DNA of 58,106 bases from Humidesulfovibrio sp. (lineage in GTDB: Bacteria > Desulfobacterota > Desulfovibrionia > Desulfovibrionales > Desulfovibrionaceae), in assembly GCF_035560995.1 (NCBI RefSeq), contig NZ_DATMYK010000186.1, positions 1-58,106 on the forward strand, written 5' to 3'. Each line of letters begins with the position of its first letter. The first letter of the stretch is position 1. The position numbers were made by a program, and so were the translations under genes. The notes under the pieces are model-generated. The model ran no database searches and was not told where the DNA came from. It saw nothing but the letters and a program-made list of their open reading frames with translations. Below, piece by piece: positions 1 to 15,095 of the stretch.

Positions 1-534
1 ATCTTGATTTGCACCTAGCTGACTTTTAGAAAAAGCATATGCTTCTGTGTATTTTTTTTGCAAGATTAGCCCAAGTGCAAAATTCGAAATAGCCTTCGGC
101 TCATTCTTTGCGAACCCATATGCCTCTAAAAGCATTTTAGCAGCAACTTCGATTCTTCCTAACAGCAAATTGCATATTCCACGGTTCGCAATTATTCTAA
201 AAATGATTCTCTTTGGTGCACTTTCTGCAATTTTTTCGTAAAGATCATCAAGCATGCCAAGTGCTGATTTTGCTTTTCTACGCTTTATAATCTCACATAT
301 TCTATCGATCTCTTTGTCTAAATGTGCTTCACTTGCTGGACATGCTGTTTCATCACTAGGCATATTGGCAGCACAGTATTGTGCTACGGCCTCACCGACA
401 ATTGCTTTTATTTGCTCTTCACTCGGACCTTGGGTGATACTTATCGGACCGTCGTTGTCTCCGCCAACCGCAACACTACAGCCTGTGGCAGTTACTTCAG
501 TTCTATCGACGATCTTTTTGAACAGGGTTCCCAT
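1..534 (-). CDS. TPR-like helical repeat protein, N-terminal 178 aa only (runs off window), with N-terminal amyloid-like motif
   Basis: Not in ORF track because there is no stop in the window. Manual translation from ATG 534 is open to base 1: MGTLFKKIVDRTEVTATGCSVAVGGDNDGPISITQG...LDKEIDRICEIIKRRKAKSALGMLDDL...RIIANRGICNLLLGRIEVAAKMLLEAYGFAKNEPKAISNFALGLILQKKYTEAYAF. TPR-like helix pairs; ATG lies 2 nt after the upstream TAG. Confidence 0.85.
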   Translation of the reverse strand, partial: MGTLFKKIVDRTEVTATGCSVAVGGDNDGPISITQGPSEEQIKAIVGEAVAQYCAANMPSDETACPASEAHLDKEIDRICEIIKRRKAKSALGMLDDLYEKIAESAPKRIIFRIIANRGICNLLLGRIEVAAKMLLEAYGFAKNEPKAISNFALGLILQKKYTEAYAFSKSQLGANQD

Positions 535-536
535 AT

Positions 537-788
537 CTACCAACGCATGCCGATATATAAGCTTATGAGCGAAGCTAGCCCAGTAACTATCGACCACACA
601 TCGAACAAACCGGAAAACTCACCTCTATTTCCGGATGTCACTATTTTAATATTTCCGCTATTGTTTCCACCAATTGCAACACTACTATTTCTTGCAATTA
701 CTTTTCGTTGGTTGTTGTTCCTCAACAACCTCATCACAAAAATCAACAATGTCACAGCGGAAATCACTCTCCAATAGAACACATCCAT
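537..788 (-). CDS. 83-aa small membrane protein: hydrophobic helix - G/N-rich motif - hydrophobic helix
   Basis: GGGAGAGGGG RBS-like sequence upstream; two hydrophobic segments (about residues 3-22 and 61-81) flank VIARNSSVAIGGNNSGNIKIV; coupled to the downstream gene (TAG-AT-ATG). Confidence 0.8.
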   Translation of the reverse strand: MDVFYWRVISAVTLLIFVMRLLRNNNQRKVIARNSSVAIGGNNSGNIKIVTSGNRGEFSGLFDVWSIVTGLASLISLYIGMRW

Positions 789-977
789 ACTCGCCCCTCT
801 CCCATTCGCATTAACATCTTTTGATGGTAGTCAACTTCTTCCCATTATATAGGACAAAAATCAGACTCTCCAGATATCGATCACTTACTTTCAATTCTCC
901 CCCCTAGGGGGGGGTAGACATTCATCTTCTTTATACCCTTGCCTGTCAATCTTTGCTAGCTATACAGCGGCCGGTCA

Positions 978-1106
978 AGTCCCACAACGTAAACCTTTCG
1001 CTACACATAGCCTGAGCCAGGGAAGCCGCTGTCCGCCGTGTAACATAACCTCGCCACTGACAAAATTGACACGCTTTCGCGTATTGTCTAAGATCTTTCG
1101 TGACAC
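978..1106. promoter_or_regulatory. Putative res site (resolvase binding subsites)
   Basis: Repeated half-site CTTTCGnnACAC at 995-1006 and 1095-1106, plus TGT...ACA-bounded segments, directly upstream of a serine resolvase; base composition switches at its left edge. Confidence 0.35.
1066..1094 (+). promoter_or_regulatory. Sigma70 promoter of resolvase
   Basis: TTGACA (1066-1071), 17-bp spacer, TAAGAT (1089-1094). Confidence 0.75.
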
Positions 1107-1139
1107 CACCGGCGACACCATCACGAGGAGGGCCAGGAC

Positions 1140-1700
1140 ATGGCGAACATCGGGTACGTGCGAGTCAGCACCACGGACCAGAAGACGGACAGGCAGCTTG
1201 AGGGCGTGGCCCTGGACAAGGTCTTCGAGGACAAAGCCAGCGCGGCGGACGCTGCCAGGCCCCAGCTCCTGCTCTGCCTGGACTACGTGCGCGAAGGCGA
1301 CACCTTGCACGTCCACTCCATCGACAGGCTGGCACGCAACCTCCAAGACCTCCTGCGCCTCCTGGGGCAGCTCACGAGCAAGGGCGTGACGGTCCAGTTC
1401 CTCAAGGAGCGGCTGACCTTCTCCGGGCAGGATGATCCCTTCCAACGGCTTCAGCTTCAGATCATCGGGGCCGTGGCCGAGTTCGAGCGGGCGCTCATCA
1501 AGGAACGCCAGCGGGAAGGCATCGCCAAGGCCAAGAGCCAAGGCAAGCACCTGGGCCGGGAGCGGAAGCTCACCCCGGAGGATGAGCGCACCCTCAAAGC
1601 GCGGGCGGAGGCTGGCGAAGAGAAGAAGGCCCTGGCCCAGGAGTTCGGAGTCAGCAGGCAGACCCTGTATCGCATCCTTGGACGTGAAGTGCGTTGTTAG
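1140..1700 (+). CDS. Small serine recombinase (resolvase/invertase family)
   Basis: GYVRVST catalytic Ser motif, SIDRLAR, ERQREGI, C-terminal HTH (GVSRQTLYR); GAGGAG RBS. Confidence 0.97.
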   Translation: MANIGYVRVSTTDQKTDRQLEGVALDKVFEDKASAADAARPQLLLCLDYVREGDTLHVHSIDRLARNLQDLLRLLGQLTSKGVTVQFLKERLTFSGQDDPFQRLQLQIIGAVAEFERALIKERQREGIAKAKSQGKHLGRERKLTPEDERTLKARAEAGEEKKALAQEFGVSRQTLYRILGREVRC

Positions 1701-1734
1701 CCTACTCTCCCAGGGGATCATTCAAGATTTTGTC

Positions 1735-2379
1735 GAATTAGTGGACACTTACTAGGAAACAGGGGCTGGGCTGAAGAACATTTGGCTCGTCGCCAACCGC
1801 AGGAAGGAGAGAGGGTCATTACATCATATATTTTAGCGTGTTGAGCGGCAAGCTTGAATTAACCGACACTACAGGAATACCCACGCCGAATTGAGGAGCC
1901 GTCTCCTCACTGCCGTTGTCGCTCACGTGCGAAGAGAGCAACGCGGTTGCACTTAGGCCATAGGCATTCCGCCCCGGCCTGTTTTTCCATTTTTATTTTT
2001 GTTTTCTGCTGGTTGAGAATTAGGGGACACCTACGGAAAGGGCAGGCGTGTTTTTGCCCGATGTGGCGGCTCAAAGTGGTTAGTGCAATCAGGAAAGGGT
2101 AAGATCTTGGATATGCCGTTCTGCCACATGACGGTATGCGAAATTTTCTCAACCATTTCAGCGAACACGAATTAACGGACACTACAGGAACAACAGGATT
2201 GGCTGCACAGAAAACAAGGCATCATACTGCCTCTTCACGTGCCACTATCAGGATTCTACTCACCGAACACTGCGGGAGAATTCAATGTACATATAACAAC
2301 AACAAAATATCCGCAGATCACCCTACTCTCCCTAGTGTTGCGGCCAGATCGGACCGAATTACCGGCCACCTAGAGGAAG
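1735..2379 (+). repeat. Array of five degenerate 23-bp direct repeats resembling T7-group phage RNAP promoters
   Basis: 1736 AATTAGTGGACACTTAC-TAGGAA; 1857 AATTAACCGACACTACA-GGAATA; 2018 AATTAGGGGACACCTAC-GGAAAG; 2170 AATTAACGGACACTACA-GGAACA; 2357 AATTACCGGCCACCTAG-AGGAAG. Each is preceded by G. Start-to-start spacing 121, 161, 152, 187 bp. Confidence 0.85.
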
Positions 2380-2534
2380 AGACAGGGACAAGATGACACA
2401 TCTCATGAGCAGCTGGTGACGGGTGTCTACGGCATCCCACGAGCAAGCCCAGGCAAGCTGACAAGTCCCCATAATTCCCCAGGCAGGATCACGCGTACCC
2501 CGCTGAACCTCTCCCCACTTCTCCCCTCTTTCAG

Positions 2535-2574
2535 GAGGCCCCTTGGCGACGTGCTGAGGGGCCTCTTTTCATTT
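2535..2574 (+). terminator. Intrinsic terminator
   Basis: GAGGCCCCTTGGC-gacgt-GCTGAGGGGCCTC stem (13 bp, two G-U pairs) followed by TTTTCATTT. Confidence 0.75.
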
Positions 2575-2619
2575 GTGGCCCTGAGTATCTGTATCAAATC
2601 AAACCCTAACGAGGATTCC

Positions 2620-2832
2620 ATGAAACACAGGAAGCACGGCAAAACGCCGTGCGAAATCAAGTCAGTCACCATGTCGGCAGAGGAACAGCGCCAACTCGAC
2701 GCCATCCGTGAGCGGTTCCACGACGGAAGCATCAACCAGATGCCCTCGCGGTCGCTCATGTTGGCGGTGTTGGTGGATTGGGCATTCAAACACGGCTTCG
2801 GGCCGAAAAACACAGAGGTTCATCATGGATAA
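2620..2832 (+). CDS. 70-aa ribbon-helix-helix (CopG-like) DNA-binding protein, putative
   Basis: ATG 2620 with GAGGA RBS; IKSVTM strand, SAEEQRQLDAIRERF helix, SRSLMLAVLVDW helix; overlaps the next start. Confidence 0.6.
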   Translation: MKHRKHGKTPCEIKSVTMSAEEQRQLDAIRERFHDGSINQMPSRSLMLAVLVDWAFKHGFGPKNTEVHHG

Positions 2833-3127
2833 TGCGATTGCGAATGCGTTCAACGACGAGCACACCAGACACGAACAGGCCCTTTCGGCTCTTATGGCCT
2901 TGGAAGAGGCCTGCGCCAGTCCCAGCAAGCGAATCATACTGGAGGGGCTTGGAAACTACCTCTCATCGTGGAAGCAGATGTATATCGGAAGGTTTGAGGA
3001 CATGCAGCGCTTTCAGTACGACCTTAATCGTTATCTCGAAGCCATGGCGAAAGAACTAGGGGCCGATATCAGCAATCTTCCTGAGTGCCCTGGCGTGGAG
3101 CGGGAGTTCCTGAATGACCTTTGCTGA
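2825..3127 (+). CDS. Hypothetical protein (100 aa, helical)
   Basis: ATG 2825 with GAGGT RBS; overlaps both neighbours. Confidence 0.65.
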   Translation: MDNAIANAFNDEHTRHEQALSALMALEEACASPSKRIILEGLGNYLSSWKQMYIGRFEDMQRFQYDLNRYLEAMAKELGADISNLPECPGVEREFLNDLC

Positions 3128-4109
3128 TTCCGCCTTCCGTATCCCCTGCATCGGCGACATCCTCGACCACGAGTTCCCTCCCCGTGGAGACCTCGTGGCG
3201 CCCTGGCTCAAGGAGGGCGAAAGCGCTCTGATCTACGCTGCTCCTGGCGTGGGCAAGTCCATGTTCGCCCTCTCGCTGGCCCTGGCGGTGGCCGGTGGTG
3301 GTAAGTACCTGGATTGGGAGACTCCCAAGCCTTACCGGGTGCTGTTCGTGGACGGCGAGATGCCCATGGACACCATCAAGGAGCGCACGGAGCTGCTACT
3401 CAAAGCCTTGCCCGGCATCGACCAGGAGCTGATCCGACAGAACCTGCACGTCTTTGCCCGGCAGTTCCAAGACGCCTCAGTGACCTTCCCCAACCTCGCG
3501 ACCACCGAAGGACAGGCCGAACTGGAGCGCCAGGCCGTGGGCTATGACCTCGTGATCCTGGACAACCTGTCGACCCTCGCCAATGTGGAGGACGAGAACG
3601 CCTCCAAGGCCTTCCAGCCCATCGTGGGCTTCCTCATGCGCATGAAGCAGCTCGGGCAGGCCTGCATCCTCATCCACCACTCTGGCAAGAAAGCCTCGAC
3701 CTACCGAGGGTCATCCATGCTGGCGACCACCTTCGAGGTGATCCTGGGCCTGGAGAAGCTCACCGGACTGAAGGCTGCCCACGGTACTGCGTTCCAGATC
3801 AAGTGGGACAAGCTCAGGGCCAAGCCCGATGAGCGGATCAAGTCGTGGGAGGTCTGGATGGATGAGGATCGTTGGGAGTTCGAGGCTGCGGCCAGCGAGG
3901 AGGTCGACCTCCTGCTCGAGGCCCTCAGGAGCGGCAAGTACGTGAACCAGAAGGAGCTGGCCGAGGCCCTCAAGTGGGACGAATCCAAGGTGACAAGGAC
4001 CAAGGCAAAGGCCATCGCCACTGGAGCGATCGACACGAAGCAGTGGGGGACCGCCTTTGGCCGAGCCAAGGATGCCCGTACTGAAACCATAAAGGAGGGA
4101 GACTTCTAG
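3114..4109 (+). CDS. RepA-like / AAA_25 (RecA-fold SF4-type) helicase-ATPase with C-terminal HTH
   Basis: Walker A APGVGKS, VLFVDGEM, Walker B LVILDNLS, LIHHSGK, RGSS motif; C-terminal NQKELAEALKWDESKVTR HTH-like segment. Confidence 0.88.
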   Translation: MTFADSAFRIPCIGDILDHEFPPRGDLVAPWLKEGESALIYAAPGVGKSMFALSLALAVAGGGKYLDWETPKPYRVLFVDGEMPMDTIKERTELLLKALPGIDQELIRQNLHVFARQFQDASVTFPNLATTEGQAELERQAVGYDLVILDNLSTLANVEDENASKAFQPIVGFLMRMKQLGQACILIHHSGKKASTYRGSSMLATTFEVILGLEKLTGLKAAHGTAFQIKWDKLRAKPDERIKSWEVWMDEDRWEFEAAASEEVDLLLEALRSGKYVNQKELAEALKWDESKVTRTKAKAIATGAIDTKQWGTAFGRAKDARTETIKEGDF

Positions 4110-4170
4110 CTGCACACAGATCCAGGTGGTAGACCTTTGGTCTCCCCCTGTCTTTTAGGTCCAAGCTGAA

Positions 4171-4211
4171 ATTGCAGATTGTAGCATCCTAGTGTGCCTG
4201 CAATCCACAAT
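4171..4211. repeat. Paired inverted heptamers, possible Rep binding site or origin
   Basis: ATTGCAG-ATTGTAG, 13-bp spacer, CTGCAAT-CCACAAT directly downstream of the helicase gene. Confidence 0.4.
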
Positions 4212-4306
4212 TCGGCAAGCAGGCTCGGCAGGGGCACGCGAGGGCGGTCGGCGAAAGCTGGCCGCCTTCGTGTTTTTAGGAACCAGCAACCGTGAGGAGA
4301 AACGAG

Positions 4307-4507
4307 ATGATGTTGGACTACGCCACTGCGATGGAGACGCTGAGAAGGGAGGGCTACGAGGTCCGCTGGGAGATGGTGGACGGGGAGCTTCTGGAGGTGA
4401 TCCCCATGGATGCGGTCTTCAGGCTCTGCGATCTGACGGGGACGCCCAAGGCCGCGAGACTCAAGGCCGCAATCAAGAAGCAGTTCTGCGGCAAGAAGAA
4501 GCGCTAG
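4307..4507 (+). CDS. Hypothetical protein (66 aa, basic C-terminus)
   Basis: GAGGAG RBS 7 nt before ATG 4307. Confidence 0.6.
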   Translation: MMLDYATAMETLRREGYEVRWEMVDGELLEVIPMDAVFRLCDLTGTPKAARLKAAIKKQFCGKKKR

Positions 4508-4583
4508 GGAGCCGCTCCATGAATGGCTGTGGCTTGTGTACGCCCGATCCTGGGCGATGAACCTGTAACGACGAGAGGAAGTT

Positions 4584-4838
4584 ATGAGCAAGAAGAACAT
4601 GAAGCATGTGGACTTGATGAGCCTTGGCGGTGGCAGTGCTGTGGATCAGGTGAAGCACCTGCTCGACATGATCATGGAAGTGTCCTGCAACACGAATGGC
4701 TGCAAGGCGCAGATGAAGATCATCCGGGCGATGGAAGATGCCCTTCAGGTGATGACAGAAGCGTACATCCCCTGCATCGGCTGCGACTGCCTCCCGGAGG
4801 ATATCCGTCCCTCATTCTGCGGGGTCATCAGGCCGTAG
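4584..4838 (+). CDS. Hypothetical Cys-rich protein (84 aa)
   Basis: GAGAGG RBS; six Cys (CNTNGC, CIGCDC, distal C). Confidence 0.6.
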   Translation: MSKKNMKHVDLMSLGGGSAVDQVKHLLDMIMEVSCNTNGCKAQMKIIRAMEDALQVMTEAYIPCIGCDCLPEDIRPSFCGVIRP

Positions 4839-4938
4839 GTCCGGGCCGCGACTGGCACTGGGAAGGGGCTGGGGGAGCGATCCTCCGGCCCTTTCCCGTC
4901 GGATTCTTCTCACATGGTAGAACAATCTCCTGAAATAG

Positions 4939-4968
4939 TTGACCAATGGGCCGTATCTTGAGTAAGTT
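4939..4968 (+). promoter_or_regulatory. Possible sigma70 promoter of integrase
   Basis: TTGACC, 18-bp spacer, TAAGTT. Confidence 0.35.
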
Positions 4969-5029
4969 TGATGGTCGCATTGCCTGCTTGATTGATGACC
5001 TTCAGCACCCCAAACGGAGAGGTGATTTG

Positions 5030-6163
5030 ATGGAACTCCCCAGAGGAATTAGGCGACGCAACCAGGGCTATTTGGTGGATGTGAGTTACAAAGGACGTCG
5101 TGTCACGGCGACATGCTATACTCTTCAGGAAGCAACGGTTCGACAGCAAGAGATCAGGGCAGAACTGCGTCGGACCGATCGAAAACCAAAGGCCGTTAAG
5201 GAGGTGATAGCCTCTAAATACTGGCTCCTTGGCAAGGCCGTTGAGGTGACCCGCTCGTCGCACTGGGCGGGTATGCGGAGCGAACTGACGGCAGCGTTGA
5301 ATAGCCAGATTCTGCTGGACTACTTCGGGACAAATTGTCCCTTATCCAAGATCAATGCTGTTGCGATAGACCGATTCGTCGCCCACTGCATGGAGCAAGG
5401 CAACTCGGATGCCACCATCAACCGCAAGCTGTCCTGCCTGCGGAAAGTGATGCAGGTGGCTCACGACAGAGGCGGCTGCCCGGTGATTCCCAAAGTCCCA
5501 AAGCGTAAAGAGTATCAGGGGAGGGTCCGGTTCCTCGATGCAGGAGAGGAGGCTGCGCTCGTTGGCTTGCTCCGCAGGTGGAGCCGGGACGAGGAAGCTG
5601 ACGCCGTGGTGGTCCTGATCGACACCGGCATGCGCTATGGCGAGTTCACCAGCATCACCCGGCGCGACATCGACACACAGCAGGGGCTGATTTCGGTGTG
5701 GGTCAACAAAGGCGATCTGCCACGCTCAGTGCCCATGACTGCTCGCGTCAGAGAGGTGGTCGAGAAACGGATCGCTCTGACGACGAACGCCACGGACCGG
5801 CTCTTCCCATACCCCAAAGGATGGCTCCGAAAGGTTTGGGATCGTGCCGCCGACATCCTGGGGCTAGGGGAGGATAAACAATTCGTGCCCCACGCCTTGC
5901 GTCATACCTGCGCATCAAGGCTGGTGCAGAGAGGAGTACCGCTGAAGGTCGTTCAGGAGTGGCTGGGGCATAAGGACATCACAACGACCATGCGCTATGC
6001 CCACCTCTCGCCAAGGAACCTGCTTGAAGCTGTGCATGCCCTTGAGCCTGAGGGATCAAATCAATCCCCCACCATCAAGCCGCAAGGCCTAAAAGCGAAG
6101 GATGGCCAAACTGTCAGCCCCACAAAGCGCCGAGTCCGAGTCAGGCCCGTCAGAAGGGCTTAA
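5030..6163 (+). CDS. int: Tyrosine recombinase / phage integrase
   Basis: ATG 5030 with GAGGTG RBS; catalytic TGMR, NKG, HALRH, LGH, MRYAH; N-terminal arm-binding-like beta domain (GIRRRNQGYLVDVSYKGRRV). Confidence 0.96.
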   Translation: MELPRGIRRRNQGYLVDVSYKGRRVTATCYTLQEATVRQQEIRAELRRTDRKPKAVKEVIASKYWLLGKAVEVTRSSHWAGMRSELTAALNSQILLDYFGTNCPLSKINAVAIDRFVAHCMEQGNSDATINRKLSCLRKVMQVAHDRGGCPVIPKVPKRKEYQGRVRFLDAGEEAALVGLLRRWSRDEEADAVVVLIDTGMRYGEFTSITRRDIDTQQGLISVWVNKGDLPRSVPMTARVREVVEKRIALTTNATDRLFPYPKGWLRKVWDRAADILGLGEDKQFVPHALRHTCASRLVQRGVPLKVVQEWLGHKDITTTMRYAHLSPRNLLEAVHALEPEGSNQSPTIKPQGLKAKDGQTVSPTKRRVRVRPVRRA

Positions 6164-6240
6164 CAGGCCTCCTGACTAGGTTAATAGTCATGCCCAGCGC
6201 CCCGGCCACTTAAACCATCCCCCTACCTCAGAGCCATCCA

Positions 6241-6279
6241 GACGCCGTTTCCCAGCACAGGGAGGCGGCGTTTTCTTTT
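6241..6279 (+). terminator. Intrinsic terminator after integrase
   Basis: GACGCCGTTTCCC-agcaca-GGGAGGCGGCGTT stem followed by TTCTTTT. Confidence 0.7.
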
Positions 6280-6379
6280 GCTCTTACCACGGCCGCCCCA
6301 TCCGATCGATGCGTTCCGCCAGAGGCAGCCACTTGCCTTTCAGGCGCTCCAACCAACCGAAACCAATAGGAGATAATCC

Positions 6380-6586
6380 GTGCAAGACGTTTCAACAAAC
6401 ACGCTCCCGGCCACAGGCTTTTTGCGCCTCCCGGCGGTGCTTAACCTCATTCCCGTCGCTCGCTCGACCTGGTGGGCTGGGGTCAAGTCGGGCCGCTACC
6501 CCAAGCCAGTGAAGCTGGGGCCTCGCATGTCGGCTTGGCGAGCAGAGGATGTCCGGTCCCTCATCGCCAGCTTTGGCCCCCAGTAA
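6380..6586 (+). CDS. alpA: AlpA-family regulator / recombination directionality factor
   Basis: GFLRLPAVL...RSTWWAGVKSGRYPKPVKLGPRMSAWRAEDV signature; GTG start with AGGAG RBS. Confidence 0.9.
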   Translation: MQDVSTNTLPATGFLRLPAVLNLIPVARSTWWAGVKSGRYPKPVKLGPRMSAWRAEDVRSLIASFGPQ

Positions 6587-6596
6587 AGGGGAGCAC

Positions 6597-7010
6597 ATGA
6601 GCAAATCAACTGACCGAATCCCGTTCACAGGGAAGCGCCTCACCCCCCGTGAAGCTATCCGCACCCACTGTCGCGAGTGCAACGGCGGAGGCCCGAAAAC
6701 GTGCCCTGTGCCGTCCTGTCCGCTCTTTCCATTTCGCATGTCGTTGGTGCCTGCTAATGTGGGCACCACTCCACTCCGAGCCATCCGCGCTCGCTGTCTC
6801 GACTGTGCCGGAACATCTGAAGGGGTCCGTGCCTGTCGGGCACGTAAGCCATTCTTGGATATCCCGGCGTGTGCGATCTGGACGCACAGGACAGGAAAGC
6901 GCCAAGTGACACGGGAGTATCGGGAGGCGCGCAGGTCTCAGGCAAATACGCAGCGCAGAGAGCCCGGCTCAAGGGGTACCTTCGCTCCACGGGACAAAGC
7001 CGAGGAGTAG
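6597..7010 (+). CDS. Hypothetical protein with two tandem Cys4 (zinc-finger-like) repeats
   Basis: TPREAIRTHCRECNGG..C....CPLFPFR and TPLRAIRARCLDCAG...C...CAIWTHR; GGGGAG RBS before ATG 6597. Confidence 0.75.
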   Translation: MSKSTDRIPFTGKRLTPREAIRTHCRECNGGGPKTCPVPSCPLFPFRMSLVPANVGTTPLRAIRARCLDCAGTSEGVRACRARKPFLDIPACAIWTHRTGKRQVTREYREARRSQANTQRREPGSRGTFAPRDKAEE

Positions 7011-7346
7011 CCGAGGGCGATCATTCTGCCTCGCTGCTCCGAAGCCTCCAGAAGGCCAAATTTGCACGCTTCACAGGATCGGCATTCACGCAAGGGGGAG
7101 GGGAGACGTCGGGTTGCAGTTATGTCTCCCTTTGTTCTCCTCCCTCCCCCTAGGCGAAGCCAACGCACCGCTACTCCATCCGCTCTTTACCCCTCTGCCC
7201 CGAATCCAGGCAGCCCCCTGACGGCAGACACACTCCCCTCTAGCCAGAGCACTCGCCTTTCTGTAACGTATCGACAACCCGGAGAGATGTGCGCCACGGA
7301 CACCCTGCGGGTCGTAAATCGTTCAGCACGAGGAAGCCCCCATCCC

Positions 7347-9182
7347 ATGAATCAGCCCGCCCTTTCCGCCTTCATCTGGTCCGTTGCCGACCTCCTGCGC
7401 GGTGACTACAAGCAGTCCGAGTATGGCAGGGTCATCCTGCCCTTCACCGTACTCCGCCGTCTGGACTGCGTCCTGGAGAAGACCAAGCCCGCCGTACTTG
7501 CAGAGTACGAAGCCAAGACGGCGGCTGGCGTGAACCCTGGCCCCTACCTGCTCCGCAAATCCGGCCAGCATTTCTTCAACACCTCCCCAATGGACATGGT
7601 CAAGCTCCTGGGCGCGCCGGACGACATCCGCGAGAATCTGACCAAGTACGTGCAGTCCTTCTCGCCCGAGGTGGAGGACATCTTCGAGCGCTTCGACTTC
7701 TTCAGCCAGATTGACCGGCTTGCAAAATGTCACCTCCTCTACCTTGTGGCCGAGCGCTTCGCGCAGATAGACTTGCACCCGACTGAAGTGAGCAACGCTC
7801 AAATGGGCTTGGTGTTCGAAGAACTCATCCGCAAATTTGCGGAAGCATCCAATGAGACCGCTGGGGAGCACTTCACCCCGCGCGAGGTCATCCGCCTCAT
7901 GGTCTCGCTGCTGTTTGTGGAGGACGAAGAGGAATTGACGGGCACCAGCGCGGTGCGCACCATCTACGACCCCACGGCGGGCACGGGCGGTATGCTCTCC
8001 GTTGCCGGGGAGTACCTGGCCGAGCGCAACCCCAAGGCCCGGCTCACCATGCACGGCCAGGAACTCAACGACGAGTCCTACGCCATCTGCAAGGCGGACA
8101 TGCTCATCAAGGGCCAGGACGTTGCCAACATCGTGCCCGGCAACACCCTCTCCGACGACGGCCACCCGCACAAGACCTTCGACTATATGCTCTCCAACCC
8201 GCCCTTTGGCGTGGAGTGGAAGAAGATCGAGCGCGAGGTCCGCAAAGAGCACGAACAGCATGGCTACGACGGGCGCTTCGGGCCGGGCCTGCCGCGCGTC
8301 TCTGACGGCTCTCTTCTCTTTCTCCTGCACCTCTGTAGCAAGATGCGCCACGTGAATCAGGGCGGCTGCCGCTTTGGAATCGTGCTCAATGGCTCGCCGC
8401 TGTTCACTGGCGGCGCGGGCAGCGGAGAGAGCGAAATACGCCGCTATGTTCTGGAAAATGATCTTGTGGAAGCCATCATCGGCCTGCCCACGGACATGTT
8501 CTACAACACCGGCATCTCCACCTACGTTTGGATTCTCTCCAACCGCAAGCCCGTCCAGCGCAAAGGCAAGGTCCAGCTCATCGACGCCAGCAGCTTCTGG
8601 CAGAAGATGCGCAAGAGTCTGGGCAGCAAGCGCAAGGAGCTTTCCGACCAGCATATCGCGGACATTACCCGGCTGTTCCGCGACTTCACCGAGGCCAAGC
8701 TCGCCACCGCGCTAGACGAAGGTGGCAAGGAAGTGGCCCGGCACATCCTCCTGCCCGGAGATGCCGCTCCCGAGGCCCCGGCAGGCGGCAAGGTGAAACT
8801 CGCGCCCCTCTCGCGCATCTTCAAGACCCAGGATTTCGGCTACCGCGCCATCACAGTGGAGCGCCCCCTACGCGACGAGGCGGGCAAGATCGTGCTGGGC
8901 CAGAAGGGCAAGCTTAAGGGCAAGCCGCAGCCAGACAGCAGCCTGCGCGACACCGAAAACGTGCCCCTGGCCGAGGACGTGGCCACGTACTTCAAGCGCG
9001 AGGTACTACCCCATGCGCCGGATGCCTGGATTGACCATGACAAGACCAAAACGGGCTACGAGATTCCCTTCAACCGGCACTTCTACGTGTTCGAGCCGCC
9101 GCGTCCGTTGGCCGAGATCGACGCGGACTTGCTGGTGGTCACGGACCGCATTCTGGCCATGATCGAGGGGCTTCAGGCATGA
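7347..9182 (+). CDS. hsdM: Type I R-M N6-adenine methyltransferase subunit
   Basis: Start [19 protein letters not shown]; [10 protein letters not shown], motif [11 protein letters not shown], motif IV NPPF. Confidence 0.97.
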
Positions 9183-10501
9183 GCTTCCCGCGCTACGAGA
9201 AGTACAAGGACTCCGGGGTGGAGTGGCTGGGCGAGGTGCCGGAGCATTGGGGGCTTCAGCCACTCTGGACGCATTTTCGTCGCATCAAGCGGGTTGGATT
9301 TTCTGAAGAGGAATTACTCTCCGTATATCGCGATTATGGTGTTATCCCAAAATCAAGTCGTGACGACAATTTTAACAACCCCTCTGATGATCTCGGCACA
9401 TACCAGCTTGTCGAGCCAGGGGATCTTGTTCTCAACAAGATGAAGGCGTGGCAAGGGTCTGTAGCCATCTCAGAGTACCGGGGAATAGTGAGTCCCGCGT
9501 ATTTTGTGTATGCGGCCACCCATTCAGCGAATGGGCGCTTCCTGCACTACCTAATGCGCTCCTTGCGCTATATTTCTGGCTACCTGTCGCTGTCTAAGGG
9601 CATACGAGTGAACCAGTGGGACATTGACCCACAGTACCACTCCCGAATGCCGATAGTCTTGCCCTCACTCCCAGAGCAGCAAACCATCGCGGCGTTCCTC
9701 GACCGCGAAACCGCCAAGATCGACGCCCTTGTGGCCGAGCAGCAGCGGCTCATCACTCTGCTGGCGGAAAAGCGCCAGGCCATCATCTCCCACGCCGTCA
9801 CCAAGGGTTTGAACCCCAACGCGCCCATGAAGGACTCGGGCATCGAGTGGCTGGGCGAGGTGCCGGAGCATTGGGAGGTGGTGCCCGTAAAATGGCTCAC
9901 CACTCACATCACTTCTGGGCCACGAGGCTGGTCTGATCTCACTGGTGACGAAGGCGCAGCATTTTTCCAAAGCCAGCACATCGGCTCTGCGATGGATGTC
10001 GCCCTTATTGATCCCAAGCGGCTTATTCCGCCAACCGACACAGATTCTGAACGAGCGAGACTGCAAGCCGATGATGTTGTACTCTGCATAACGGGCGGAA
10101 GAACCGGCGCAGTAGCCCATATTCCAGAACAGCTTGAGGAGGCATACATTAACCAGCATGTATGCCTTCTCCGGCCGCAAGAGGATGTGCTTGGACGTTT
10201 TCTGGCTTACGGGCTTTTCTCAACAGGAGCACAGCGGCAGTTGGCGTGTGCCAGCTACGGCCTAAAGCAAGGGTTGGGCCTTGAGCAAGTGAACTCGACA
10301 TTTCTTGCAGCACCCCCTTCCAAACAAGAACAACGTGACCTAGTCATGTTCCTGGACAAGCAAACCGCCCACCTCGACACCCTCACTCAAGAGGCCAATC
10401 GCGCCGTCGAACTGCTCAAGGAACGCCGCGCTGCGCTCATCTCCGCCGCAGTGACGGGCAAGATTGACGTGAGAGGACTTGCAGACAAGGAGGCCACATG
10501 A
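9179..10501 (+). CDS. hsdS: Type I R-M specificity subunit
   Basis: Two TRDs, each preceded by KDSG(V/I)[10 protein letters not shown]; coiled-coil conserved regions; [13 protein letters not shown] tail; ATGA overlap with hsdM. Confidence 0.96.
9221..9875 (+). repeat. 31-bp perfect direct repeat pair in hsdS (9221-9251, 9845-9875)
   Basis: GAGTGGCTGGGCGAGGTGCCGGAGCATTGGG occurs twice, 624 bp apart (in frame). Confidence 0.9.
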
Positions 10502-11403
10502 GCGACATCAAACTGTTCCGCACTGGGCCGCAAGGCGTGGCAGAACTCAAAGGTCAGTCCCTGGCCCTGGAACGGTCGCTTCAGGCGCTCATGGAAAAGA
10601 ACCTGGAGACACTGCTCGGCGTGCGGTTCCTGGCCTCGGAGTACTCCACCGGAGCCAAGCACAAGGGGCGCATCGACACCCTCGGCATCGACGAGAACCG
10701 CTGCCCGGTCATCATCGAATACAAGCGCACCACAAACGAGAATGTCATCAGCCAGGGCCTGTTCTACCTGGACTGGCTCATGGACCATCAGGCCGAATTC
10801 AAGCTGCTCGTGCTCGACAAGTTGGGCAAGAAAGAAGCGGACGGCATTGAATGGTCTGGCCCGCGCCTGTTGTGCATCGCCGGGGACTTCACCCGCTATG
10901 ATGAGCACGCCGTGCGGCAGATGAACCGCAACATCGAGCTGATCCGCTACCGCCATTTCCCGGATGGCTTCCTCATTCTGGAGCGGGTAAATTCGGTAAG
11001 CGCCGAGACCATCCCAGTGGGACCGAAAGAAATCACCGCGAAGCACTACAAGAGCGTTTCAGAGCACCTTGCCCAGGCCCCTGAGGCGCTGAAGGAACTC
11101 TATCATGCCTTAGAGGATACCCTCCAAGGCCTGGGCGACGATGTCGAGAAGAAGGTCGTCAAGTGCTACATCGCGTTCAAACGCATCAAGAACTTCGCCT
11201 GTGTGGAAGTCCGCGTGAAAGAGCAGCGTCTGCTCGTCTACGTAAAATGCCCGGCGACGCCGGAGAATCTTATTGAAGGATTCACCCGTGACCTGAGCAA
11301 TATCGGTCACTTTGGCACGGGAGACTTCGAGATCACTATCCGCAACCGAGACGACCTGTCGCGGGCGCAGCGGTTCTTTGAGTTGAGCTACCAGGAGAAT
11401 TAG
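10498..11403 (+). CDS. NucS/EndoMS-like PD-(D/E)xK nuclease fused to DUF5655-like domain
   Basis: GRIDTLGIDENRCPVIIEYKR and Q...Y motif; C-terminal YIAFKRIKNFACV...GHFGTGDFEI; ATGA overlap with hsdS. Confidence 0.8.
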   Translation: MSDIKLFRTGPQGVAELKGQSLALERSLQALMEKNLETLLGVRFLASEYSTGAKHKGRIDTLGIDENRCPVIIEYKRTTNENVISQGLFYLDWLMDHQAEFKLLVLDKLGKKEADGIEWSGPRLLCIAGDFTRYDEHAVRQMNRNIELIRYRHFPDGFLILERVNSVSAETIPVGPKEITAKHYKSVSEHLAQAPEALKELYHALEDTLQGLGDDVEKKVVKCYIAFKRIKNFACVEVRVKEQRLLVYVKCPATPENLIEGFTRDLSNIGHFGTGDFEITIRNRDDLSRAQRFFELSYQEN

Positions 11404-11442
11404 GACTAGCTGATTATCTGGCGGAATTTGGGGGGATGAAGC

Positions 11443-11931
11443 ATGGCAAACGTCAATCCAGATCGGATCATGCAAGAGTTTGCAGCCAGAACTCGGAAGA
11501 ATATTCTCCACATAAAAACGGGGAAAGAACGCTTCAGGCATGATGTATTCGAGGTCACTGAGGTGTTCAATTCATTATTAAGCTTGATCGTGCTTCCTGA
11601 AGCCCTTAAACTTGATCCCCCACTTAATACAGCCCTTGAAAGACTTTCAAGAGATCGTTGGCCGGAAGCAATCATCAACCTTTCTCCTCCTTTCCCCAGC
11701 TTGGGCGTCTTTCTCTATTGCATGAGGCACTCGATAGCCCATGGAGATTTCGCCTTTCGACCTGGGAGGGACGGGGAGATTGCGTCTGTCGAATTCGGCG
11801 GTTCATGTCGGCTACCACGGAATCCTACTGAATGGCTGCTGGAACTCACTGTCGACGATCTATTCATGTTTGTGTTTGCACTATGCGACATGTGGGTAAA
11901 TTTCTGCGAAAACACAACGTTTAAGCGATAG
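11443..11931 (+). CDS. HEPN-domain protein (pEK499_p136-like), putative RNase toxin
   Basis: Rx4H motif RHSIAH; upstream EVTEVFNSLLSLIVLPE helix; more AT-rich than neighbouring hsd genes. Confidence 0.75.
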   Translation: MANVNPDRIMQEFAARTRKNILHIKTGKERFRHDVFEVTEVFNSLLSLIVLPEALKLDPPLNTALERLSRDRWPEAIINLSPPFPSLGVFLYCMRHSIAHGDFAFRPGRDGEIASVEFGGSCRLPRNPTEWLLELTVDDLFMFVFALCDMWVNFCENTTFKR

Positions 11932-11960
11932 TCCACTCGTTTGCTGGCGCAAGGATAATA

Positions 11961-14900
11961 ATGAGCACCCTCCACAAAGAAATCCACCTCGAAGCGGAAA
12001 TCTGCGACCACTTAGCAGTGCACGGCTGGCTGTACGCCGAGGACGACGCCAAGGCCTACGACCGAGGGCTCGCCCTGTTTCCAACGGATGTGATCTCCTG
12101 GGTGCAGGAGACACAGCCCAAGGCCTGGGAGGCGCTGGTCAAGAATCATGGCGCAAGCGCCGGGGCGGCCCTTTCACAGCGTATCCGGCAGGTGTTGGAC
12201 CAGAGGGGCACCCTGGAGGTGCTACGCCACGGAGTGGACATGGTCGGGCTTAAGCAGACCCTCCCCCTGGCGCAGTTCCGGCCTGCCCTGGCCATGAACC
12301 CAGATGCACTGGCCCGCTACGCTGCGAACCGCCTGCGCGTGGTGCGGCAGGTGCGTTACTCTCTGCAAAATGAAAACGCCTTCGACCTTGTGCTCTTTCT
12401 GAACGGCATCCCCGTGGCTACGGCGGAACTCAAGAGTGACTTCACGCAGTCCGTGCAGGACGCGGTGGACCAGTACCGCTTTGACCGCGACCCACAGCCC
12501 AAGGGCAAGCCTGCCGAGCCGTTGCTCGCCTTCCCCAGCGGTGCGCTCGTGCATTTCGCAGTGAGCAACAGCGAAGTGCGCATGACAACGAGGCTCAAAG
12601 GGGTCAAGACCCGCTTCCTGCCCTTCAACAAGGGACGGGACGGTGGCGCGGGCAACCCGCCCAACCCCAAAGGACACACCACGGCCTACCTCTGGGAAGA
12701 GGTCTGGGAACGTGAAAGCTGGCTGGAGATTCTTGGCCGCTACCTCGTGACCGAGCGTGACAGCAAGAAGCAGATCAAGGCGCTCATATTCCCCCGCTAC
12801 CACCAGCTTGACGCCACGCGGAAGCTCCAGGCAGCGATCTTGAAGGAGTCACTGGGGCAAGACGTCAGCGGCAAGTACCTCATCCAGCATTCGGCAGGCT
12901 CTGGAAAAACCTACTCCATCGCCTGGACGGCCCATTTCCTGGCCGATCTGCACGACGCCTCAGACAAAAAGCTCTTCGACACCGTGCTCGTCGTGTCTGA
13001 CCGAACCGTGCTCGATGAGCAGTTGCAGGAAGCCATCTTCAGCTTCGAGCGCACTACGGGCGTGGTGGCCGCCATCACCAACGAAACCAGCAGCAAGAGC
13101 AAAGCCCTGGCGGATGCGCTCTCCGGCAATAAAAAGATAGTCATCTGCACCATCCAGACATTCCCCTTTGCCCTGGAAACCGTGCAGAAGCTGGCCGCGA
13201 CCCAAGGCAAGCGTTTCGCCGTCATCGCCGACGAGGCCCATTCCTCCCAAACCGGTGATGCCGCAGCAAAGCTTAAGGCCGTGCTCAACGCGGACGAACT
13301 GGCGGAGCTTGAGGACGGCGGCGAGGTCTCCACCGAAGATGTCTTGGCCGCTGAGATGGCCGCGCGGGCAGCCAAAAAAGGCATCACCTACGTGGCCTTC
13401 ACGGCAACGCCCAAGCACAAGACACTGGAACTTTTCGGCCAGCGCCCGCACCCCGATCAACCGGTTGGGCCGGGCAATCTACCTGAGCCGTTCCATGTCT
13501 ACTCCATGCGCCAGGCCATCGAAGAAGGCTTCATCCTCGACGTGCTCAGAAACTACACGCCGTTCAAGACCGCCTTCCGGCTGGCCTACAAGGGTGAGGA
13601 GTATGACGAGACGCAGGTCGAGCGCAGCGAGGCCCTCAAAGGCATTCTGCGCTGGGTGCAGCTGCACCCCTACAACATAAGCCAGAAGGTCCAGATGGTG
13701 GTGGAGCACTTCCTGAAAACCGTACAGCCTCTTCTGGGGGGCCGTGGCAAAGCTATGGCCGTGGTCAGCAGCCGCCTGGAAGCCGTGCGCTGGAAGATCG
13801 CCATGGACTCCTACATCAAGAGCCAGGGCTACAAGCTCGGCACGCTTGTAGCCTTCTCTGGTGAAGTGAATGACAAGGACTCCGGGCCGGAGCCGTTCTC
13901 CGAACACAGCAAAACGCTCAATCCAATGCTGAAGGGCAGAGACATCCGCAAAGCCTTCGCCACGGACGAATTTTCCATCATGGTCGCGGCCAATAAATTC
14001 CAAACCGGCTTTGACCAACCCCTGCTGTGCGGCATGTACGTGGACAAGCGCCTTGCCAACATCCAGGCCGTTCAGACGCTTTCCCGCCTCAACCGCGCCT
14101 ATCCCGGCAAGGACAATGTCTACGTGCTGGACTTCCGCAATGAACCCGCCGAGGTGCTGGCCGCTTTCAAAACCTACCACACCACAGCGGAGCTTGAGGA
14201 TGTCACCGACCCGAACTTGGTCCTCAACCTTCGGGCCAAGCTCGATGCTTCCGGCCATTATGACACCCCGGAAGTGGAGAGAGTGGTCACCGTTGAACTC
14301 AACCCGAAGGCCAAGCAGGGCGATCTGACAGCCGCAATCACCCCCGTGGCCGACCGTTTGCTGAAGCGCTTCAAGGCCGCAAAGGAGGCCCTGACGGCGG
14401 CCCAGGCCGTAAAAGATGACACTGCCGCAGGCGAAGCCCGCGACACCATGAATGCGCTCACCCTCTTCAAGCGCGACCTCATGAGCTACCTGCGCATGTA
14501 TGCGTTTCTCTCGCAAATTTTCGATTACGGCGACACGGACGTGGAGAAGAAGGCCATCTTTTATAAACGGCTACTGCCCTTGCTGGAATTTGGACGCGAG
14601 CGAGATGGCATCGACCTGAGCAAGGTGGTGCTGACCCACCACAACCTCAAGTCTCATGGGAAAGTCGCTCTTCCGCTGAACGATGGGGAGGCTCCCAAAA
14701 TCAAGCCTATGACCGAATCGGGTGACGGTTCCGTTCAAGAAAAAGAGAAGGCGCTGCTCGCGGAGATCATCGCCAAGGTCAACGACCTCTTTGAAGGCGA
14801 ACTCACGGACGATGACCAGCTTATTTATGTGAACAACGTGCTCAAGGGCAAACTCCTAGAATCCGAGATGCTCGAACAGCAGGCCAAGAGCAACACCAAG

Positions 14901-15095
14901 GAGCAGTTCGCGAACTCCCCCGACTTGGCCAAGGAAATTATGAATGCCATCATGGACGCGCTGGCGGCGCACACAAACATGAGCACCCAGGCGATTAATT
15001 CGGAACGAGTGAGAGCGGGGCTAAAGGACGTGCTTCTTGGGCCTGGCCAGCTGTATGAGTCCTTGCGAGGAAAGAGCGGAGAGGCAAGCACCTGA
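11961..15095 (+). CDS. hsdR: Type I restriction endonuclease subunit R
   Basis: DLVLFLNGIPVATAELK nuclease motif, HSAGSGKT, DEAH, FTATP, TGFD, QTLSRLNR. Confidence 0.97.
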   Translation: MSTLHKEIHLEAEICDHLAVHGWLYAEDDAKAYDRGLALFPTDVISWVQETQPKAWEALVKNHGASAGAALSQRIRQVLDQRGTLEVLRHGVDMVGLKQTLPLAQFRPALAMNPDALARYAANRLRVVRQVRYSLQNENAFDLVLFLNGIPVATAELKSDFTQSVQDAVDQYRFDRDPQPKGKPAEPLLAFPSGALVHFAVSNSEVRMTTRLKGVKTRFLPFNKGRDGGAGNPPNPKGHTTAYLWEEVWERESWLEILGRYLVTERDSKKQIKALIFPRYHQLDATRKLQAAILKESLGQDVSGKYLIQHSAGSGKTYSIAWTAHFLADLHDASDKKLFDTVLVVSDRTVLDEQLQEAIFSFERTTGVVAAITNETSSKSKALADALSGNKKIVICTIQTFPFALETVQKLAATQGKRFAVIADEAHSSQTGDAAAKLKAVLNADELAELEDGGEVSTEDVLAAEMAARAAKKGITYVAFTATPKHKTLELFGQRPHPDQPVGPGNLPEPFHVYSMRQAIEEGFILDVLRNYTPFKTAFRLAYKGEEYDETQVERSEALKGILRWVQLHPYNISQKVQMVVEHFLKTVQPLLGGRGKAMAVVSSRLEAVRWKIAMDSYIKSQGYKLGTLVAFSGEVNDKDSGPEPFSEHSKTLNPMLKGRDIRKAFATDEFSIMVAANKFQTGFDQPLLCGMYVDKRLANIQAVQTLSRLNRAYPGKDNVYVLDFRNEPAEVLAAFKTYHTTAELEDVTDPNLVLNLRAKLDASGHYDTPEVERVVTVELNPKAKQGDLTAAITPVADRLLKRFKAAKEALTAAQAVKDDTAAGEARDTMNALTLFKRDLMSYLRMYAFLSQIFDYGDTDVEKKAIFYKRLLPLLEFGRERDGIDLSKVVLTHHNLKSHGKVALPLNDGEAPKIKPMTESGDGSVQEKEKALLAEIIAKVNDLFEGELTDDDQLIYVNNVLKGKLLESEMLEQQAKSNTKEQFANSPDLAKEIMNAIMDALAAHTNMSTQAINSERVRAGLKDVLLGPGQLYESLRGKSGEAST

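Follow-up and report, generated by a model that had tools for sequence, protein, structure and literature searches.

Predicted helix-motif-helix membrane proteins that share a BASS6-like motif with TPR-GreAB-C-PIN-type receptors: a recurrent candidate amyloid-signaling defense pair

What might a very small protein with two hydrophobic helices and a TPR-like protein encoded directly behind it do with a 21-residue motif that both carry? The question is raised by the left edge of the window, by which we mean the whole stretch of DNA analyzed (bases 1-58,106 of contig G000:C186). On its minus strand, an 83-aa open reading frame (788-537) is followed, after a 2-nt gap behind its TAG, by a frame that begins at ATG 534 and continues for 178 codons up to the contig end. 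Because the window opens the contig, this second gene runs off it. We refer to the two products as the effector and the receptor, after the roles proposed for them below. The features of the pair and of the genes next to it are as follows.

537..788, minus strand: effector gene, 83 aa, with a hydrophobic helix, an amyloid-like motif and a second hydrophobic helix (open reading frame; AF2 model; layout recurring in L067, L075 and the frameshifted L066)
726..782, minus strand: N-terminal hydrophobic helix (aa 3-21), a predicted membrane anchor (Kyte-Doolittle; sequence unlike that of relatives)
639..701, minus strand: BASS6-like motif of the effector (aa 30-50), within a loop rich in K and R (pairwise match to the receptor motif)
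549..608, minus strand: C-terminal hydrophobic helix (aa 61-80), a candidate pore or packing helix (conservation above shuffles; small-residue stripe)
1..534, minus strand: opening 178 codons of a gene for a TPR-GreAB-C-PIN-type receptor, broken off at the contig edge (45% identity to P0002)
433..495, minus strand: BASS6-like motif of the receptor (aa 14-34), within an N-terminus modeled at low confidence and probably disordered (motif match; pLDDT <50)
10..336, minus strand: first TPR-like helices of the receptor, aa 67-175 (AF2 pLDDT about 91-98; alignment A1)
844..872, minus strand: sigma70-like promoter site, TGGAGA-17-TATAAT, upstream of the pair (consensus match only)
794..803, minus strand: purine-rich, ribosome-binding-site-like stretch ahead of the effector ATG (sequence)
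1140-1700: resolvase
3114-4109: AAA_25 gene
4946-6163: tyrosine integrase
10498-11403: DUF5655 gene, inserted in type I R-M
11443-11931: HEPN pEK499_p136 gene, inserted in type I R-M

The pair lies at the edge of an island that contains the resolvase, the AAA_25 gene, the integrase and a type I R-M system, whose hsdM/hsdS/hsdR genes carry the DUF5655 and HEPN pEK499_p136 genes as insertions; this mobile defense island spans window positions 1140-15095. The GC content of the pair is 41%, compared with 66% for the genome, and no tRNA gene was found in the window. The promoter consensus was matched at 2 sites, where shuffled sequence gave 0.5 on average. A contig of run X1 is identical to window positions 157-1164, with no differing letters and no gaps; it may not be independent of our sequence, since run X1 is possibly the source sample.

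Both copies of the motif lie where a preliminary description of this DNA had located them. In the effector, VIARNSSVAIGGNNSGNIKIV occupies aa 30-50 (nt 639-701), and in the receptor, VTATGCSVAVGGDNDGPISIT occupies aa 14-34 (nt 433-495). Aligned without gaps, the two are identical at 11/21 residues (52%) and 38/63 nucleotides, with a BLOSUM62 score of 51, and the codons differ at 7 of the 11 identical residues; our recomputed identity and codon counts equal those first reported. When both proteins were shuffled, 11 identities arose in 1 of 3,000 trials and a best-window score of 52 in none of 3,000, and shuffling within the motifs gave 11 identities in 0 of 200,000. Among the 6,117,256 six-frame 21-mers of the whole genome, scores of at least 40 were obtained only for the effector motif itself (100) and the receptor motif (51). 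The shuffles and the genome-wide scan rule out a chance match, and the similarity between the two motifs is far beyond chance.

The downstream protein had also been said to start with the motif. The motif does lie near its N-terminus, but at aa 14-34 rather than at the very start, given that translation most likely initiates at ATG 534, 2 nt after the effector TAG. In relatives, effector and receptor are separated by gaps of 2, 8 and 11 nt. An alternative start at GTG 597 was rejected, as the receptors of relatives begin just past the effector stop.

The identity of the receptor was approached through longer homologs. In a search among longer proteins, P0002 (1,324 aa, bearing PF20698) was the sole match out of 895 candidates, with 45% identity to the receptor fragment over aa 69-175 (107 aa; E 2.9e-15 in 5.8 billion). 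A search with P0002 returned 41 proteins, and the N-terminal TPR region of the receptor matches 40 of them at 27-47% identity; the 41st, P0041, is an N-truncated fragment too short to cover this region. No Pfam or NCBIfam family passes on the receptor fragment. By its sequence, the window receptor is a relative of the TPR-GreAB-C-PIN (TGP) proteins, the Agp family, and the resemblance proposed in the preliminary description thus holds. In an AF2 model based on 11 aligned rows, aa 67-175 form TPR-like helices (pLDDT about 91-98 between aa 71 and aa 170), while the pLDDT of aa 1-31 falls below 50; the N-terminus that carries the motif is probably disordered.

The C-terminus of the receptor had been placed outside the window, and this was borne out: the gene ends with the contig, and searches of the assembly, which is 93.65% complete, with PF20698, P0002 and two closer full-length relatives as queries did not recover the rest of it. 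The window copy may be truncated. Because GreA/B-C and PIN domains are absent from the contig and assembly, we attribute them to the receptor from its relatives. The receptors of loci L067 and L075, which are full length (1,160 and 1,167 aa), are 40-41% identical to the window receptor and 32% identical to each other. Both score above the PF20698 cut-off (84 bits and 63 bits, respectively); neither has a PF01272 (GreA/GreB-C) hit of its own, and they align to the PF01272 hit of P0009 at 26/72 and 23/72 positions. PIN-type acidic residues are kept in both, so the receptor could itself be a killer, a point that bears on one of the alternatives discussed below.

Genome searches with the receptor returned few informative relatives. 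The fragment had no match in 60 relatives of the source genome, and profile A1, run on 400 genomes of the phylum, gave weak generic TPR matches only, in 63 of them (E 5e-7 or worse). PF20698 had 11 matches in 401 genomes of the phylum, with no motif pair by inspection at the six loci opened, and 8 matches in 251 genomes of a Planctomycete family, where none of the six opened had N-terminal membrane helices.

A search with the TPR alignment yielded 44 loci (43 metagenome and one viral, several near-duplicates included). The receptor carries a fused N-terminus with an REase-like motif in 33 of these; another 5 are missing their 5' end, and the remaining 6 show neither. The fused part, found in most homologs, amounts to about 200 residues ahead of the TPR region. 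Its REase label follows the architectures of Kaur et al. and our own regular expression; Pfam gave no nuclease match on P0002. All six loci with neither a fusion nor a 5' cut have a small gene just upstream. Together with the 33 fused loci, this suggests that a separate small gene occupies the slot of an otherwise fused toxic domain.

At L066, L067 and L075, the upstream gene encodes a motif with a hydrophobic helix on either side, and this motif recurs at the start of the receptor. Inspection of homologous loci for motif pairs, a check suggested in the preliminary description, thus revealed a motif-bearing TGP receptor behind a helix-motif-helix gene at three other loci. The pair is real and recurrent, with four loci in all, whose receptors are about 32-44% identical. 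An automatic test for sharing between the receptor N-terminus and the upstream DNA scored L067 at 54, L075 at 64 and L066 at 38; the other 36 testable loci scored 14-35. L066 and L067 are close relatives, and the L066 copy is decayed. Its small gene is frameshifted in a G run and its receptor ends in a resolvase-like piece (L066:4652-5720); this locus lies behind Fic and type III restriction genes. In a phylogeny of the TPR stretch, computed on 46 rows after removal of near-duplicate loci, the window grouped weakly with L066/L067 (94/68) and L075 fell in a polytomy, among long branches.

Genes that we take by eye to be Bell-like lie upstream of same-clade TGP receptors at L094 (~1120-1560), L103 (~330-790) and L108 (~950-1440). 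Their tail is longer, C-terminal and beta-rich, centered around LD[IVF]DAGG[NH]V, and by eye it matches NVTV[AN]AG[GR][ND] at the receptor start; it possibly represents another motif family. These three loci scored low in the sharing test (19-35). At L154 (G977:C5), a TGP gene with no fused N-terminal domain stands directly behind a separate 522-aa gene that we labeled PNPase-like by eye.

Signs of co-varying motifs, which the preliminary description had proposed to look for, were seen on one side of the pair. The window effector motif scores 51 with its own receptor and 35-40 with other receptors, and that of L075 scores 72 with its own and 57-61 with others. The L067 effector motif scores 60 with its own receptor and 39-53 with others, with 62 for the receptor of its close relative L066. 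From the receptor side, however, the L075 effector gives slightly better scores (59 and 61) for the window and L067 motifs than their own effectors do (51 and 60). Since the receptor-side preference fails for two of the three pairs, the covariation is only suggestive.

We next consider the effector. The intact effectors of the window, L067 and L075 are 83, 86 and 103 aa long, and the relatives are 24-37% identical to that of the window. A single-sequence AF2 model of the window protein has helices at residues 2-34 and 55-82 with coil between them (mean pLDDT 68, pTM 0.37). The initial view of the effector as a non-Bell protein with an internal motif stands: there are two helices only, and in each of the three intact proteins the motif is followed by another 33-44 residues, among them a hydrophobic helix. 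The N-helix of the window effector is only moderately hydrophobic by calculation (Kyte-Doolittle 19-mer 1.78, GES 0.83, two Arg within), and the N-terminal part is not above shuffles when compared with L067 and L075 (571 and 1516 of 3,000). The part after the motif is kept beyond composition (0, 1 and 0 of 3,000 shuffles for the three pairs compared), and the C-terminal helix has the conserved pattern W-[NS]-I-x-x-G-[IL]-A-[ST], with the small residues S66, G70, S73 and S76 (+1, +5, +8, +11) on one face. Across 80 codons, the L066 and L067 effectors differ by 21 synonymous and 18 non-synonymous changes; in the C-helix stretch, the corresponding numbers are 10 and 3. Under the positive-inside rule, basic loops face the cytoplasm. 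The loops of the three intact effectors hold 6, 7 and 4 K+R, against 0-1 at the termini, so the motif loop is predicted to be cytoplasmic, in the compartment that holds the receptor; the L075 loop is charge-neutral, with 4 K+R and 4 D+E.

Searches with the effector alone brought up no clear relatives. It had no domain match in Pfam, NCBIfam (at cut-off) or PADLOC families, among which no known toxic domain was matched. In copies of the databases that may lack 9H9V, there was no sequence match in the PDB at E 10 and, using the low-confidence model, no Foldseek fold match at E 0.001. A word-index search returned only the effector itself. Profile A2 gave 2 matches in 401 genomes of one phylum, both chemotaxis-receptor-like and false, 0 in 401 genomes of a second phylum and in 5 further genomes, nothing in viral contigs and nothing real in plasmids. 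Near-identical cluster members number 6 for the L075 effector and 2 for that of L067. In the ESM Atlas, the window and L067 effectors alike had their best feature score, 0.89, to an 89-aa, 69-member unnamed cluster, whose relationship to the effector we regard as a lead only.

To which family does the motif belong? BASS training sets are provided in supplement 1 of PMC8086366, in which class C09 is BASS6 according to the accompanying README. The motifs of the window, L066, L067 and L075 resemble by eye the C09 members listed there, such as VTASGERSVAVGGHNSG and QVAADHGAVAVGGDL. Placed against BASS11 with D-N in register, a comparison limited to scattered Bab residues given in the text (I87-G88-S89-V90, Q92, D99, N100), the present motifs lack the I-G-S-V-x-Q half. 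Judged by eye, they resemble BASS6 and probably do not belong to BASS11. At all four loci the motif is found in adjacent effector and receptor genes, N-terminal in the receptor.

Bab/Agp of E. coli ECOR25 (Ibarlosa et al., bioRxiv 10.1101/2024.11.07.622273) provides a point of comparison. According to the preprint text covered here, T5 infection leads Agp to convert the BASS11 motif, with the membrane retracting and Bab relocating to the cell periphery; defense is lost when either motif receives proline substitutions or when GreA/B-C is mutated. The same text reports that HET-S together with an R0-Agp chimera can stand in for Bab in E. coli against T5. As in Bab/Agp, a small gene lies directly upstream of a TPR-GreA/B-C-PIN-type receptor (here with the 2-nt gap), a motif of ~20 aa is present on both proteins and sits at the receptor N-terminus, the setting is a defense island, and the effector is predicted to target the membrane. 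Bab, however, consists of a soluble Babybell domain of five helices, with a MEPIS helix at its N-terminus and a BASS11 motif at its C-terminus, whereas in the present effector the BASS6-like motif lies internally, between two hydrophobic helices of which the C-terminal one is conserved. We considered and rejected an assignment to Bab/Agp proper, as the Bell domain is missing and the motif is internal.

The pair also resembles the BASS6 Bell/NLR pairs that Dyrka et al. describe in their preprint text (bioRxiv 10.1101/2020.01.06.895854), by eye in its motif pattern V-x-A-x(3-4)-S-V-A-[IV]-G-G-[DN] and also in its collinear, tightly spaced genes. Its within-pair identity, 52%, falls inside the 43-56% given there for cross-seeding pairs. 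It differs in having a TGP receptor instead of an NB-ARC/NACHT NLR, and an effector that is not a Bell, hydrolase, TIR2, CHAT or cyclase protein and whose motif is internal. With the TGP systems of Kaur et al. 2021 (PMC8195603; PF20698), in the parts covered, it shares the receptor family, the variable N-terminal effector slot being here filled in trans. These authors distinguish 13 effector types (REase, HNH, PNPase, TIR, SIR2, peptidases, HetE-N and others), and their supplement lists many HetE-N1 to TGP pairs and one fused TM+TM+TPR+GreAB-C+PIN protein, CAD79080.1, known to us by its listed architecture only. A separate two-helix membrane protein with a motif in common with the receptor is unlike the types in these parts of the paper.

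No amyloid-linked membrane-hairpin effector was found in the text passages covered here from the BASS, Bab/Agp and TGP literature, including the review PMC12881547. In the text covered, the word "transmembrane" occurs once in bioRxiv 10.1101/2024.11.07.622273 (in the methods) and not at all in bioRxiv 10.1101/2020.01.06.895854, PMC9815663 and PMC12261475. Within that literature, the helix-motif-helix effector is undescribed, and the pair would be a variant of amyloid-signaling defense pairs that combines a BASS6-like motif with a TGP receptor.

Our reading of the pair starts from its gene order and coupling, the common motif, the receptor family, the recurrence at three other loci and the conserved C-terminal helix. 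We think it probable that this is a Bab/Agp-like abortive-infection pair, in which the killing is done not by a Bell domain but by a membrane hairpin that has the amyloid motif inside it. By analogy with Bab/Agp, the TPR-GreAB-C-PIN-type receptor would sense phage via its GreA/B-C domain, its N-terminal motif would fold into amyloid and seed the matching motif in the effector loop, and the outcome would be abortive infection, with the infected cell killed. The remaining steps are suggested by features of the effector. Both helices would cross the inner membrane, leaving the basic loop in the cytoplasm; loop motifs stacking at about 4.7 A spacing would force neighboring hairpins together, and the small-residue face of the C-terminal helix would line a pore or distort the bilayer. 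Whereas Bab is switched when a buried helix is released, this effector would already be a resident of the membrane, and crowding would act as its switch.

A stronger claim is that these proteins form a new class of amyloid-gated killer: integral membrane hairpins of 83-103 aa whose cytoplasmic loop is the amyloid motif, with TGP templating zipping resident hairpins into a pore through the W-[NS]-I-x-x-G-[IL]-A-[ST] helix, and with no soluble folded domain. On this our judgment is evenly balanced. The novelty would lie in the type of effector, not in the mechanism, since the receptor class and the amyloid link are already the published Bab/Agp principle.

The roles could also be distributed differently, although we think this unlikely. 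The small membrane protein might be a sensor, tether or brake, holding the TGP protein at the membrane via the motif or seeding it upon membrane disturbance, with the PIN RNase doing the killing. This would fit the lack of a match to known toxic domains in the small protein and the PIN-type acidic residues of the L067 and L075 receptors. It accords poorly with the position of the small gene in the slot of a nuclease-like domain (fused in 33/44 loci), where it alternates with the presumably Bell-like genes, and with a C-helix that is kept beyond the needs of a plain anchor. The preprint text on Agp bears on both sides: a PIN mutant lost resistance, albeit with a destabilized protein, but Agp alone gave no defense against T5, and the flow in Bab/Agp runs from receptor to small protein (bioRxiv 10.1101/2024.11.07.622273).

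We give little credence to a second alternative, that the amyloid switch is the same but the effector is a soluble, minimal analog of Bell; its two helices would be mutually shielded in the cytoplasm and would enter the membrane only once the motif had converted. The C-helix is indeed partly amphipathic (hydrophobic moment 0.96 in the window and 1.32 in L075), and Bab and HET-S, according to the preprint text, act through release of a buried helix (bioRxiv 10.1101/2024.11.07.622273). Nevertheless, the low-confidence model suggests only two helices and no sheathing bundle, both helices of the L067 effector are strongly hydrophobic (KD 2.2 and 2.7), and nothing matched Bell-type sequences or structures. 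That the motif is an ordinary, non-amyloid beta-strand contact, or a duplicated leftover without signaling function, is very improbable: some motif carriers do lack a nearby partner (L040, L051, L046, L061), but the motif is kept on both genes at four loci despite the divergence of their receptors, with synonymous divergence, and it resembles a described BASS family.

In the literature text covered here, amyloid-controlled effectors take the form of soluble domains that carry the motif at one end (HeLo/Bell, TIR, CHAT, hydrolase, PNP, cyclase). If the membrane-hairpin reading is true, amyloid stacking alone can gate a membrane lesion, and TGP sensors exchange effector class as well as motif family. 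The hairpin would also be smaller than any other death effector under amyloid control, and the first whose switch acts from inside the membrane. L067 and L075 are complete pairs, usable for direct testing of this reading, and since Agp accepts a foreign motif and effector, as in the HET-S/R0-Agp chimera, the window effector can be assayed despite its incomplete receptor.

A scan of 185,579 genomes for the motif pattern returned 43 loci, mostly chance matches in transporters, enzymes and non-coding frames, with a few true-looking BASS6-type cases; in viral contigs, the pattern had 2 matches, both beside a stop codon. Verrucomicrobial proteins of ~260 aa (L040:2443-3228, L051:4096-4887, L024, L047 and L049) have an internal BASS6-like motif between an N-terminus that is HNH-like by eye and a helical C-terminal domain, and no motif-sharing neighbor of theirs was found. 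An internal BASS6-like motif, with no partner within 700 bases, is also present at L061:2418-3037, L046:4105-4950 and L038:3912-4760, a set made up of a TIR-like protein, a protein with one N-terminal membrane helix and an uncharacterized protein. The scan further turned up a Saccharothrix pair with a NACHT-like receptor (L042), and a Bell-like protein at L045 has a C-terminal motif. Finally, a Streptomyces pair (L054:1-952, minus strand) likewise links a membrane-type effector to a receptor by a BASS6-like motif, located near the start of an NB-ARC-like gene downstream of the effector. Unlike in the window pair, both hydrophobic helices of this effector are N-terminal, two motif repeats are C-terminal, and the receptor is NB-ARC-like.
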